IMG/VR virus record: IMGVR_UViG_3300036719_001118
Location: 1 to 24,574 of that record
Origin: a virus
Lineage: Duplodnaviria; Caudoviricetes
Direction: 5' to 3' (one strand)
DNA length: 24,574 nucleotides
Under the pieces are notes generated by a model that saw only the letters and a list, made by a program, of their open reading frames with translations, was not told the origin of the DNA and did no database searches. Made by a program: the position numbers and the translations under genes. Positions within the stretch are counted from its first letter, which is position 1; the number at the start of each line of letters is the position of its first letter. This document shows positions 4,332 to 9,379 of the stretch, one piece after another.

Positions 4332-5271
4332 GGTGCGGATCGACGCGGAGATTGACTACCACGGCCCTGCAATGCTGCTGCCGCATGGCAGGCTGTCGGC
4401 AATCCTGTCGGCCGCTGGTGGCGACGAAGTCACACTGACGCAGGAAGACAGCAAGTGCACTGTGTCCTGCGGCAACGGAACGTGGACGCTGCCAACGGAA
4501 GATGCTGCCGAGTATCCGACGTGGTGCGTGACTGGCGGAAAGCCTGTGTGCCGGCTGCCTGCTGACCAGTTCTGCCGTGCTGTTGCTGGCGTGGTCTACG
4601 CCTGCGATGAGGAAAGCAGTCGTTACGCACTGGGCGGTGTGTGCCTGGATGTGCATGGAGGCACGGTTACGCTGGTGGCCACGGACGGCCGCCGGCTTTC
4701 TTCTGTTGAGTGTGAGGTTGACCAGGCTGTTGATGACGGCCAGACGCTGGTGCCGGCCCGTGCACTGGGAGTCATGCAGCGACTGGCAGCCGGCAGCGAA
4801 AGCGCCGTGCAGCTGGAGGCCAGCGGCACTGAGTGCGTGATGACCGTGGATGGAATTACGGTCACGGCACGTCTGCTTGAAGGCAAGTTCCCGAAGTGGC
4901 GGGACGTGATCCCCACCCGTGACGCCAAGTGCACCACGGTGACCAGCAGCGAATTGCTGTCCGCCACCAGGGCGGCGGCAATCGTGACAACGGAAGATTC
5001 ACGCGGCGTGCAGTTCGCATTCAACGGCGAAGGCATCTGGCTGCACGGGCAGTCGGCCGTTGCCGGCGAGTCATCCGTGACGTGCCCGGTTGTCGAGTCG
5101 GGCCAGGCGTGCAGCGTCAAGCTAGATCCCGTGTACGTTAGGAACTGGCTGACGGGCCTGCCAGCAGACGGCGAGCCTGTGGTGAGCGTTGAGGCCGTGG
5201 ACCGATCCAGCGCCGTCGTGTTCCGGTGCGGCGAGTACACCGGCGTCGTGATGCCGCTGGCACTTGACTGA
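4156..5271 (+). CDS. dnaN: DNA polymerase III beta subunit (sliding clamp) homolog
   Basis: GTDLEVRI, SSRYALGGV, LVATDGRRL, RLLEGKFPKWRDVIP, C-terminal VVMPL; AAAGGA RBS before ATG 4156. Confidence 0.93.
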   Translation: MSTATKERKKTKAGGITLSAATLKQALAQVSAAVPSRHAKLILANVLLSDGVLTGTDLEVRIDAEIDYHGPAMLLPHGRLSAILSAAGGDEVTLTQEDSKCTVSCGNGTWTLPTEDAAEYPTWCVTGGKPVCRLPADQFCRAVAGVVYACDEESSRYALGGVCLDVHGGTVTLVATDGRRLSSVECEVDQAVDDGQTLVPARALGVMQRLAAGSESAVQLEASGTECVMTVDGITVTARLLEGKFPKWRDVIPTRDAKCTTVTSSELLSATRAAAIVTTEDSRGVQFAFNGEGIWLHGQSAVAGESSVTCPVVESGQACSVKLDPVYVRNWLTGLPADGEPVVSVEAVDRSSAVVFRCGEYTGVVMPLALD

Positions 5272-5282
5272 GTACATACGGT
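5264..5282 (+). promoter_or_regulatory. Putative promoter, TTGAC-N8-TACGGT
   Basis: Same spacing recurs at 7527, 14683, 21067, each at a gene boundary. Confidence 0.45.
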
Positions 5283-5317
5283 GGCTGTGGGTTTCATCAC
5301 CAAGGAGGGCATAGCCC

Positions 5318-5623
5318 ATGCGGTCGATTCTGTTAGCAGTTCTGGTTTGTCTTTCTTTCATCAGTGCCGCCTATGCGGAGCGGTACCACAGCCGCACGGT
5401 AGTGCGTACCACGGCACAGCAGGATGCTGACGATATGGCACGCACCGGCCGCTTTGGGCATCGCGGGTGCTGCGGTTGTCGTGAAGGCATTGGCATGGGC
5501 AGCACGCCCGAGGATGCTTTGGCGCGCTGTTGCTACAACGACGGCCGCTACGTGATCCGTGAGCGTGCCGTTGCTCGAGGTGCCAACGGTCGGTGGTATG
5601 CGGTCATTCGTTACGCCAACTGA
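5318..5623 (+). CDS. Small secreted Cys-rich protein, possibly a minimal CAP/SCP-like fold
   Basis: Signal peptide MRSILLAVLVCLSFISAAYA; AQQDADDMARTGRFGH...EGIGMG...VARGANGRWYAV echoes CAP-domain motifs. Confidence 0.6.
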   Translation: MRSILLAVLVCLSFISAAYAERYHSRTVVRTTAQQDADDMARTGRFGHRGCCGCREGIGMGSTPEDALARCCYNDGRYVIRERAVARGANGRWYAVIRYAN

Positions 5624-5828
5624 TGCCGAGCCAAACCGGTGGCGGTGGATTCCCATTGCGGAAACACCGCCGCCGGAAGGCCGGATCATCATCTGCCGAG
5701 ACATCAACGGCAACAAATACGTGGACATGATTTCGTACGTGCCAGACGATCCGGCAGGGCTTCCGCCTCTGCCGACGCTCAAGCACGTGACACATTGGAT
5801 GTTGGCACCAGAGGGACCACATGGCTGA
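5598..5828 (+). CDS. DUF551-like phage protein
   Basis: WIPIAETPP...VTHWMLAPEGP signature; start uncertain (ATG 5598 or GTG 5559). Confidence 0.7.
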   Translation: MRSFVTPTDAEPNRWRWIPIAETPPPEGRIIICRDINGNKYVDMISYVPDDPAGLPPLPTLKHVTHWMLAPEGPHG

Positions 5829-6108
5829 TCGCGTCTGTATCGTTGGGCATCGAAAGCGCACTGTGGATCGTGAGTTGCTCAAGCAGTTGTGGTTCGATGA
5901 GTCGCTGACGATCGTGCAAATTTCCGTACGCCTGCACTGCTCAAGCCCCACGATCTACAGCGTGGCCAAAGAAATGGGATTGCCGAACCGCAGGTGCCTG
6001 ATGGGCCGGGAGTGTTTCTTTCCGGTGACAGACCCGACACCTGAAGAAATTGCCCAGCGTGCGGCTGAACAGCGGGCGCTTCGCGGGCCTGGGTGGGTCA
6101 TGAAATGA
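5821..6108 (+). CDS. HTH protein with C-terminal DPTPEEIA motif
   Basis: LLKQLWFDESLTIVQISVRLHCSSPTIYSVAKEMGLPNR HTH-like; similar architecture to 9354-9731. Confidence 0.7.
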   Translation: MADRVCIVGHRKRTVDRELLKQLWFDESLTIVQISVRLHCSSPTIYSVAKEMGLPNRRCLMGRECFFPVTDPTPEEIAQRAAEQRALRGPGWVMK

Positions 6109-6154
6109 GAACGGCTGCGATCAGCGGCCCGTCCGCTGCATCGCTTGGTTCTCA
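6106..6154 (-). other. attC-like recombination hairpin (49 bp)
   Basis: Minus strand reads TGAGAAC-CAAGC-GATGCAGC-GG-ACGGG-CC-GCTGATC-GCAGCC-GTTCTCA: AAC, 5 nt, 8-nt L'' with one extra base, 7-nt L', 6 nt, GTT. Confidence 0.6.
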
Positions 6155-6166
6155 TGAATAAGCGAC

Positions 6167-6406
6167 ATGAAATACGACGCACTTATCGCGAACCTTCGCT
6201 GCCAGTACGAACGCTATCGCGGCAGCGGAACTCGCATGGAACAAATGCTGAAGGATGCTGGTGCTGCACTAGCGAAGGCGAGGCTTACCGACGATGAACG
6301 TGAGGCGATTTCAGAAGCGGTCGGAGCGTACAACGACAACGACGACGACGAGGAATGTGCGAAGATCGCAGCCACGCTTCACGGCCTACTGAAGCGGCTA
6401 GGCTGA
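6167..6406 (+). CDS. Hypothetical protein (79 aa), putative cassette cargo
   Basis: Only compact ORF between the two TGAGAAC sites; stop codon lies in the second TGAGAAC. Confidence 0.7.
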   Translation: MKYDALIANLRCQYERYRGSGTRMEQMLKDAGAALAKARLTDDEREAISEAVGAYNDNDDDEECAKIAATLHGLLKRLG

Positions 6407-6453
6407 GAACCACTGTTTATACGTCACCGTTAGCGCTCACCGTGTCGTATAAC
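6404..6453 (-). other. attI-like site
   Basis: Minus strand GTATAAA-CAGTG-GTTCTCA (7-5-7 simple-site spacing) plus an upstream GTTATAC repeat; TTATACG/CGTATAA inverted repeat at 6417-6423/6446-6452. Confidence 0.4.
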
Positions 6454-6516
6454 GCGCCGAGAATTCACGCCGGGCGGCCGAGAAACAGCACGGCCCGCGA
6501 TTAACACGCAAGATAA

Positions 6517-7545
<1,029 letters not shown>

Positions 7546-7551
7546 CCGGCC

Positions 7552-7953
7552 ATGCGTCCAATCACGTTCAGCGTGCCAGGTGATCCAGTGCCGCAGCCAC
7601 GTCCGCGAGTCTCAACGCGGGGAGGCTTCGGGCGTGCATACGTCCCGAGCACGCATCCTGTGCACCACTACAGGAAATGTGTTGCTGCCTGTGCCGTCAA
7701 CGCTGGGCTCACGGCCACCGATCAGCCCATCAGCGTCATCATTGACGCGGTATTTGTCCGGCCTAAGTCTCACATGAACAAGTCAGGCATCAAGCCGGCT
7801 GCACCGCAGTTGCCAAGGCCCGATGTGGACAACGTCGCTAAGGCCGTGCTGGATGCCTTGCAAGACGTGATTGGCGACGACACCAACGTGGCACGTTTGG
7901 TGATTGAAAAATCCTACGGCACCGAGGCCCGCACAACGGTACGTATCCAATGA
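7552..7953 (+). CDS. rusA: RusA family Holliday junction resolvase
   Basis: VPGDPVPQPRPR, RPDVDNVAKAVLDAL, DDTNV catalytic aspartates. Confidence 0.92.
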   Translation: MRPITFSVPGDPVPQPRPRVSTRGGFGRAYVPSTHPVHHYRKCVAACAVNAGLTATDQPISVIIDAVFVRPKSHMNKSGIKPAAPQLPRPDVDNVAKAVLDALQDVIGDDTNVARLVIEKSYGTEARTTVRIQ

Positions 7954-8480
7954 GCAATGCCAGCCTGCACGATTACCTGCGTGACCACTGCCAGCTGCAC
8001 GACGTGTGGCACTACTTGGAAATCGGAGTGCGTGACGGCGATTCATTGCGGGTCGTGGTCGAGAACGGCCACGCGTTGCAATCTGTCTGGCTGTCCGATA
8101 CGTGGGGCGGCGAGTACGGCGGCACCAATCGTGGCAGCCACTGGCACATCGAAAAACTTCTGGACGAATTCCCCTTCTTGGGCCGGATCGCATTCCTAGA
8201 CGGCGACAGCCGAGTAACCATCCCAGCGTTGATGCCCCAAAAGGCTAATGCGTTCGACCTGGTGTTGGTGGACGGCGACCACTCTGCCGCCGGCGCCATG
8301 GCGGATCTTCAAAACGTCTGGCCGCTGGTCAGGCCAGACGGTTGCGTTGTTTTCCACGATACCAATCACCCGGCCCACCCTGAACTGCGGCAGGTGTTTG
8401 ACGCGTTCGTCGTTCAGCACAGGGCACCGCACATGGTGAACGACGCCGGCTATGGATTGGGTGTCGCATGGAAAAACTAA
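7950..8480 (+). CDS. Class I SAM-dependent methyltransferase (Methyltransf_24-like)
   Basis: YLEIGVRDGDS, FDLVLVDGDHS, LVRPDGCVVFHD. Confidence 0.88.
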   Translation: MSNASLHDYLRDHCQLHDVWHYLEIGVRDGDSLRVVVENGHALQSVWLSDTWGGEYGGTNRGSHWHIEKLLDEFPFLGRIAFLDGDSRVTIPALMPQKANAFDLVLVDGDHSAAGAMADLQNVWPLVRPDGCVVFHDTNHPAHPELRQVFDAFVVQHRAPHMVNDAGYGLGVAWKN

Positions 8481-9379
8481 CGGTTCCAGATTGGCTTGTG
8501 TTTCCTATGGAAATTTTTGCCGAAGACATGGAGCGGCACATTAAGCACGGGCTCACGGTGCTGGCACGCTCCAAGATCGCAATGGTTGGTCTTGCCAGGA
8601 ACTGTGCACCCAACCTTGAGCGGAACCTTGGCAACGCTCAGCACTTGGCACGGCTGTGCCGAGATTGGTGCCTGCACATCGAGGAAAACGACAGCACCGA
8701 TGAAACGGTGCAAGTTCTGTCCGACTACTGCCGCGACTTCCCCAAGGCCACGTTCACGTCACGGCGATTAGGTCGCAAGCAGTACAGCACAGAGTTTGCC
8801 GGTCGCCGCACGATCGCGCTTGCGGAGTACCGCACAGCGTGCCAACGGTGGGTGAAAGATTGTGCCGCAGACGCAGACTTCGTTGTGATGATTGATTGGG
8901 ACCAGTTTGCGTGGTCGCATCACGGCGTTGTGCACGGATTCGGCGCGATGGCAGAAACGCCAGACGCATCCGGCATGGGCAGCGTGTCACTGCTTGAGGC
9001 AAACGTGGCGGAAAGCGACGGGACGAACATTCGGCAGAAGCGTGGTTGGCTGCACTACGACTGCTGGACGCTGCGAATCAACACGTGGTGGGACGATTAC
9101 ACAGCCGGACAGGGTGCGTGGAAGCACCAATGGTTGCCGCCGGTTGGTTCGCCCCTAATTCCGGTGTGCACGGTATTTGGCGGGCTGGCGATCTACCGCA
9201 CCGCCGACTACCTGCAGGGAACCTATGACGGCACGACAGACTGCGAGCACGTGACGCTGCACAAGACGATTGGCGAAAGGACAGGCAAAAGGATGTACAT
9301 GAACCCAGCGCAACGCTGCGTGATGCAATTTCTACAGCCTGTCGAGGCCACGGATGGCGGGAAACACTGCGACGATTAG
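8468..9379 (+). CDS. GT-A fold glycosyltransferase (CAP59/GT69-like or GT2-like)
   Basis: GLARNC, ENDSTDET, RTIALAEYR, DxD (MIDWD), FGGLAIY, CEHVTLH, YMNP. Confidence 0.75.
   Translation: MEKLTVPDWLVFPMEIFAEDMERHIKHGLTVLARSKIAMVGLARNCAPNLERNLGNAQHLARLCRDWCLHIEENDSTDETVQVLSDYCRDFPKATFTSRRLGRKQYSTEFAGRRTIALAEYRTACQRWVKDCAADADFVVMIDWDQFAWSHHGVVHGFGAMAETPDASGMGSVSLLEANVAESDGTNIRQKRGWLHYDCWTLRINTWWDDYTAGQGAWKHQWLPPVGSPLIPVCTVFGGLAIYRTADYLQGTYDGTTDCEHVTLHKTIGERTGKRMYMNPAQRCVMQFLQPVEATDGGKHCDD

Follow-up and report, generated by a model that had tools for sequence, protein, structure and literature searches.

Why would a tailed phage that encodes no integron integrase in the sequenced region carry a small gene bracketed by one attC-like and one attI-like site? 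The DNA that raises this question (the window, 24,574 nt, the whole stretch analysed) is part of a tailed-phage genome in which every gene lies on the + strand; its products include a replication initiator, a DNA methyltransferase, a sliding-clamp-like protein, RusA, a terminase and, later, structural proteins. Near-identical DNA occurs in 24 lake-water metagenome runs, and no match to the window was found among annotated phage records. A sequence-only reading had proposed an integron-like cassette, inverted relative to its sites and moved by a borrowed IntI-type recombinase, and its coordinates were all correct (Table 1). Our analysis suggests that the locus, with good probability, belongs to a type of mirror-image integron that phages carry without an integrase; it has one cassette, which host IntI acting in trans would move.

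Table 1. Features of the cassette locus, in window coordinates
Feature	Position	Strand	Description
Upstream fixed gene	5821..6108	+	95 aa, HTH-like; ORF call, weak PHROG 36 match
attC site	6106..6154	-	49 bp; top strand is minus, bottom strand is +; fold z -4.3
Cassette	6112..6409		298 bp, between two crossover points that part A from C; hairpin ahead of the gene, stop codon at the far end
Cargo gene	6167..6406	+	79 aa; antisense to attC/attI polarity, co-directional with the phage operon
attI-type dock	6404..6453	-	R box 6410-6404, 5-nt spacer, L box 6422-6416, extra GTTATAC box 6453-6447
GC-rich element	6454..6520		Directly after the dock; same motif in 7 viral loci
Downstream fixed gene	6526..7530	+	Nucleotide-sugar epimerase/dehydratase family (gmd-like), 334 aa; PHROG 540, E 3e-87

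Read on the minus strand (6154-6106), the left-hand site comprises R'' (6154-6148), 5 nt, L'' GATGCAGC (6142-6135), a 9-nt centre, L' GCTGATC (6125-6119), 6 nt and R' GTTCTCA (6112-6106), with one unpaired (extrahelical) base at position 4 of L'' (6139). The R''-L''-L'-R' layout claimed earlier for this palindrome is borne out, with a small refinement concerning the strand of the unpaired base: on the bottom strand, the one that recombines and here +, this base is C, as in IntI-bearing host loci. Folded as single-stranded DNA, the site reaches -16.1 kcal/mol, a stability that none of 200 shuffles equals. A finder written for strict attC geometry, used in place of the IntegronFinder/HattCI models, calls this one site in the whole window, whereas 20 shuffles average 0.1. 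The only Rfam match was a chance one distant from the attC, and no relevant match was obtained. The stretch 6106-6154 is a genuine attC-type site. Two caveats raised against it are accurate as descriptions but have lost force: 49 bp is indeed short for an attC, but sites of 48-51 bp account for 41 of 128 phage cassette sites, and the core is indeed GTTCTCA rather than GTTRRRY, but non-GTTRRRY cores vary with the incoming cassette. The TGAGAAC repeat is also present as reported, at 6106 and 6404, 298 bp apart, with each copy containing the TGA of the preceding + strand gene (5821-6108 and 6167-6406). This 7-mer is not rare alone (five copies on the + strand of the window), and comparison with relatives therefore carries the argument.

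The product of the upstream fixed gene matches the PHROG 36 transcriptional regulators weakly (E 0.003), and eight of its nine distant relatives lack an attC nearby; the attC/dock platform is an optional part of these phages. Further left, 5318-5623 encodes a 101-aa protein with a hydrophobic N-terminal stretch and no PHROG match, relatives of which adjoin a dock or array in three loci (L047, L188 and L191), and 5559-5828 holds a small gene weakly matching PHROG group 924/7704, a common cassette cargo in relatives that here stands without an attC. To the right, the row at 6526-9379 contains the gmd-like sugar enzyme, rusA, a methyltransferase and a 303-aa protein without a known family; the genes past rusA differ among relatives L173-L180, all of which are without attC. 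A weak test called no sigma-70-like promoter in 5200-7000.

The right-hand site has the character of an attI. Its minus strand reads GTATAAA-CAGTG-GTTCTCA (6422-6404), with GTTATAC at 6453-6447, just as had been described, and its hairpin is weak (z -1.9 and -0.6 on the two strands), as expected of attI. A profile of 14 distinct host attI sites, of the form AAC, 5 nt, (A/T)TT(A/C/T)T, finds its best match on either strand of the window at 6408 (10.0 bits; runner-up 4.7) and scores at least 10 bits in 27 of 54 distinct phage top matches, all 27 of which sit 231-1788 nt past the last attC, although the test is partly circular because the host sites were chosen with a motif shaped by phage sites. 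Once unrelated low-GC sequences had been removed from the short dock-pattern matches by a GC 58% filter, 53 distinct dock homologues were counted; attC lies upstream in 38 of the 41 with enough upstream DNA and downstream in 0 of 41. The dock sits ahead of rusA or, in other phages, ahead of the portal gene, and the GC-rich motif behind the window dock is conserved behind most phage terminal sites, with none seen behind host attI. The profile rank, the polar position and an empty dock in another phage locus (L191, discussed below) together place an attI at the entry end of the array. By sequence, the dock is a phage copy of the attI found beside true IntI genes in planctomycete genomes.

Relatives of the window site form a large family. 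The 19-nt arm of the attC recurs in 46 viral loci, mostly as rows of sites one gene apart, the largest array having 15 attC in one fetched locus; set against the definition of a CALIN (at least two attC without a nearby integrase), the window has one attC and its relatives have up to these 15. The loops vary, and sites measure either 48-58 or 84-91 bp. The antisense orientation of the gene, which the sequence-only reading had singled out as unusual, is the pattern of the family: among 128 distinct phage cassettes, 101 are clearly inverted, with the gene on the bottom strand, none is canonical and 27 are unclear. Genes of an ordinary integron read away from attI, from a nearby Pc promoter; no phage cassette gene clearly has this direction. 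The window site is of the short type, and its gene starts 12 nt past the attC. In 54 of 72 long phage sites, an ATG in the loop is the start of the cassette gene, and 47 of these 54 also have a ribosome-site motif; among long host attC, 2 of 76 combine such a motif with a loop ATG, in a test that was not identical to the phage one. Most cargo is unfamiliar: 99 of 125 proteins have no PHROG match at 1e-4, and the matches include three DNA methyltransferases, two Mom-like proteins, one HNH nuclease and one phosphoesterase. Thirteen phage cassettes carry members of one uncharacterised group (PHROGs 924, 7704 and 60). Many different cargo genes have in common a C-terminal module, LTD.EREAI ... A..L..LL.RL (window 6310-6406; L047, L050, L057, L188 and L222), which also occurs in genes outside cassettes and points to recombination inside genes.

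Several comparisons indicate that cassettes move as units. Twelve near-identical cargo pairs (93-100%) exist among 130 cassettes; in all 12 the upstream 60 nt are unrelated and identity leaps to 100% at AAC, and in 11 the downstream DNA differs as well. Locus L191 is an empty dock, and L222 is the same locus with a single 843-nt, two-cassette insertion beginning exactly at AAC, the flanks matching at 232 of 260 positions in a pairwise alignment with cheap gap extension. The left flank of this pair also occurs in L193, L247 and L255, followed by one, two and one other cassettes, respectively. Both variable cassette number next to a common flank, now seen in these three loci and L222, and an empty site with its breakpoint at AAC had been predicted for relatives of the window. 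L227 was considered as a further empty allele because it has no upstream attC, but its flank match is a common cargo end and it was not counted. In one array, the same cassette is present twice (L122:1068-2557; 96% identical), as expected of repeated insertion. Finally, the 4-nt stretch inside R'' can base-pair with the far end of its own cassette in 109 of 128 cases, as against 22 of 128 for the end of the neighbouring cassette, a pattern that demands a circular intermediate opened at the core. On this comparative evidence, the sites, the mobility of cassettes as units, the empty and filled states and the crossover at AAC are established features of the family, with units moving by crossover between G and TT as in integrons.

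These data also bear on two other accounts. The hairpins could be mere gene-border repeats that serve homologous recombination and thereby the exchange of genes. In these lakes the site family is highly abundant, with a summed contig depth of 640-1370 at the hairpin versus 18-60 for the phage, and the C-terminal module common to many cargo genes points to intragenic recombination as well. Against such exchange, however, the L222 insertion begins exactly at AAC where a second hairpin is absent, R'' mostly pairs with its own cassette's far end, and arrays are strictly polar with respect to the dock; we regard exchange of this kind as improbable. Alternatively, the hairpin could serve transcription termination or RNA processing and nothing else, with the second site a product of chance. 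The hairpin does lie between two co-oriented genes and would be present in the mRNA, but no terminator-like site was called at 6106-6154, and the same site family occurs in IntI-bearing host integrons. The mobility, circle-signature and empty-site data contradict a terminator-only function, which we consider extremely improbable; the hairpin may have a side role in RNA.

How far does the family's behaviour extend to the window itself? Relatives of its cargo gene occur in 23 viral loci and, as predicted, other phages carry the 79-aa cassette flanked by such sites. The cargo protein has no PHROG match at 1e-4 and no Atlas match of at least 0.9. The two ends of the window cassette are fully complementary (CTCA/TGAG). 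Copies of it in L001/L103 and L104 match its DNA at 96-97% identity and have upstream DNA that is unrelated right up to AAC; identity of this order implies a recent move. An expected empty junction (6111-6410) or circle for the window phage, by contrast with the relatives, failed to appear in the assembled contigs of 8 of the 24 runs, a search confined to assembled contigs, which drop rare forms. A joint at 6152-6449 (22-letter side, unknown letters between) was traced to a related phage, not to excision, and one related-phage contig rejoins the window at 6406 after 294 other letters. Of the 27 phage docks that reach 10 bits, the window dock scores lowest. It is one of the most diverged, and when positions 16-30 are scored alone it comes 93rd of 655 AAC sites; it may therefore be decaying. 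An exact 22-mer of the dock has no match in metagenome contigs. One could thus suppose that the family system is real and the window copy a relic, its cassette having entered once via IntI and its dock having decayed since. The low dock score and the lack of a variant junction in the contigs of the 8 runs favour this supposition, but the near-identity to other phages' copies and hence the recent move, together with an intact R box, L box and hairpin, speak against it; we think a relic unlikely, though a possibility to be taken seriously, and one that does not conflict with our main explanation for the family.

Which enzyme would act on these sites? The related attC pattern is found at 44 loci in bacterial genomes, many of them Planctomycetota, and several of these loci adjoin an IntI that passes the TIGR02249 threshold (5 of 5 tested genomes). 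Such an IntI is present in 76 of the 176 genomes of the family to which genome G041 belongs. An attI-type motif lies no more than 450 nt from the end of the IntI gene in 19 of 30 fetched IntI loci; the DNA next to this motif varies on the cassette side and is conserved on the opposite side. Many planctomycete integrons have attI past the 3' end of intI, which places intI and the cassette genes on one strand (L149, L150, L159 and L161, from the set L141-L170); the usual divergent layout is seen in L085, L141 and L143. An ‘inverted integron-integrase’ layout has been described (Cury et al. 2016, PMC4889954), and the host arrays resemble it, as described there, in that IntI is often on the cassette-gene strand. 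From site similarity only, we infer that the phage host would be a planctomycete.

Gene direction in the host arrays calibrates that in the phages. Among 60 host cassettes, 24 are canonical, 30 unclear and 6 were called inverted. Three of these six calls are false, the genes in L090, L143 and L151 running in the normal direction, and another, L069, is a 1.3-kb phage-like contig in a genome titled Methylocystis, which has three phage-format sites with inverted cassettes and is probably a mis-binned phage piece. The normal gene direction in host integrons fixes the top strand and means that the phage genes are truly inverted. The two calls that stand are both in L066 (L066:112-795), a planctomycete chromosomal integron with two inverted cassettes at attI and with IntI, ABC-F ATPase and sulfurtransferase genes alongside. 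The attC of one cassette shares 96% identity with a phage site over 96 nt; the companion cassette carries a gene matching PHROGs 924, 7704 and 60, as do the 13 phage cassettes noted above. This pair suggests transfer from phage to host, and the clearest indication that host IntI acts on cassettes of the phage format comes from L066, one metagenome-assembled contig.

The phages themselves seem to lack such an enzyme. As had been noted from sequence, the window, a partial genome, has no integrase: tblastn with four phage recombinases and one host IntI found no tyrosine recombinase in it at E 0.01. Among 50 phage contigs with an array or a dock, of which 16 have a completeness of 90% or more, none has an IntI above the TIGR02249 cut-off, and an IntI linked to the array, as in a complete integron, was not found, whereas planctomycete genomes supply the matching IntI and attI that the idea of a borrowed host enzyme called for. 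It could be argued that the phages' own tyrosine recombinase moves the cassettes, as a PF00589 gene is present in 23 of 39 phage contigs and in 10 of 12 near-complete ones. Yet two near-complete contigs are without one, the gene lies several kb or more from the array where the array position is known, and the dock matches host attI. None of the seven proteins tested exceeds 21.7 bits on TIGR02249, for which the cut-off is 265 and a host IntI scores 454, and by inspection they lack the IntI-type insertion. We infer that these proteins are lysogeny integrases, and we find their involvement in cassette movement improbable. A divergent family of 288-337-aa tyrosine recombinases common to these phages (L131-L140) scores at most 55 bits on all NCBIfam models. 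Because the phages are without IntI, cassette swapping is likely to be carried out by the host integron enzyme, and host IntI in trans is the probable catalyst for the window cassette.

In integrons, IntI joins the folded bottom strand of attC to double-stranded attI. This attC-by-attI mechanism is summarised in PMC9892861 and PMC5371416. Applied to the phage locus, host IntI would fold the + strand (bottom) hairpin of a circular cassette, and the folded cassette would be joined to the double-stranded dock between A and C (6409/6410), so that every new cassette would be added at the tail of the row, beside the dock. Genes inserted in this way point at the dock and would thus be read by the phage's own rightward operon without a Pc promoter; each hairpin would precede its gene, and long sites would often provide the ribosome site and start codon, so that the cassette format appears adapted to such reading. 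In the reverse reaction, 6111 would be joined to 6410. The TGA of the upstream gene (6106-6108) lies immediately left of the crossover AAC, and this stop would therefore outlast cassette loss. Inversion of the cassettes might place the recombining strand on the lagging-strand template, a position that raises excision (Loot et al. 2017, PMC5371416); in the window the GC skew is flat and a replication origin was not located. The likely benefit is that co-occurring phages could rapidly exchange small accessory genes, including DNA-modifying ones. More broadly, we lean towards the view that a group of lake planctomycete phages has given rise to a parasite of host integrons, consisting of an attI copy and mirror-image cassettes with hairpin start signals, and that host IntI shuffles a pool of these cassettes between phages and sometimes into the host chromosome.

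The phage system is integron-like in its working but is not a complete integron, as it has no IntI and the opposite gene direction. With the sedentary chromosomal integrons of planctomycetes (L066, L077, L085, L100 and L141-L170), it has in common the attC family, the attI layout, the attI-to-attC polarity and the crossover between A and C. In those integrons, however, IntI lies beside attI and genes run in the normal direction, whereas the phages have no IntI and their genes face attI; the newest cassette is predicted to be last in the phage transcript but is first in a host integron. Filamentous phages that exploit XerC/D carry a mimic of a host site and no enzyme of their own, and the whole phage integrates via the host recombinase. 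The phages studied here likewise imitate a host recombination site, without encoding the enzyme that acts on it, but, in contrast, are proposed to shuffle single genes within the phage instead of integrating whole.

Clusters of attC in phages have already been published. Qi et al. 2023 (PMC9892861) list 17 CALINs in 10,705 genomes, none of those described there being from planctomycete phages; IntI1 recombined five of six phage attC with attI1, and one active site is about 50 bp long by our count from their Table S3. One Shewanella prophage CALIN in that study has an attI, beside a complete integron. Like those CALINs, the arrays analysed here are phage attC clusters without integrase and with methyltransferase cargo. 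Unlike the CALINs as described in that work, they have genes inverted relative to attC, a host-like attI that regularly ends integrase-less arrays, empty and filled alleles, and start codons in attC loops. A literature search, with most subscription journals outside its scope, found no report of the inverted, dock-ended, integrase-less layout.

There are several biological implications. First, the system would provide a precise mechanism for phage genome mosaicism, in which genes are swapped one by one at defined sites by a borrowed host enzyme. Second, the usual view of integrons as anti-phage stores would be reversed, as phages would exploit the same machine; 5 of the 125 cargo proteins are DNA methyltransferases or Mom-like modifiers. 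Finally, the arrangement bears on the origins of cassettes, as translation starts in attC loops imply that cassettes were made or refitted for phage use.
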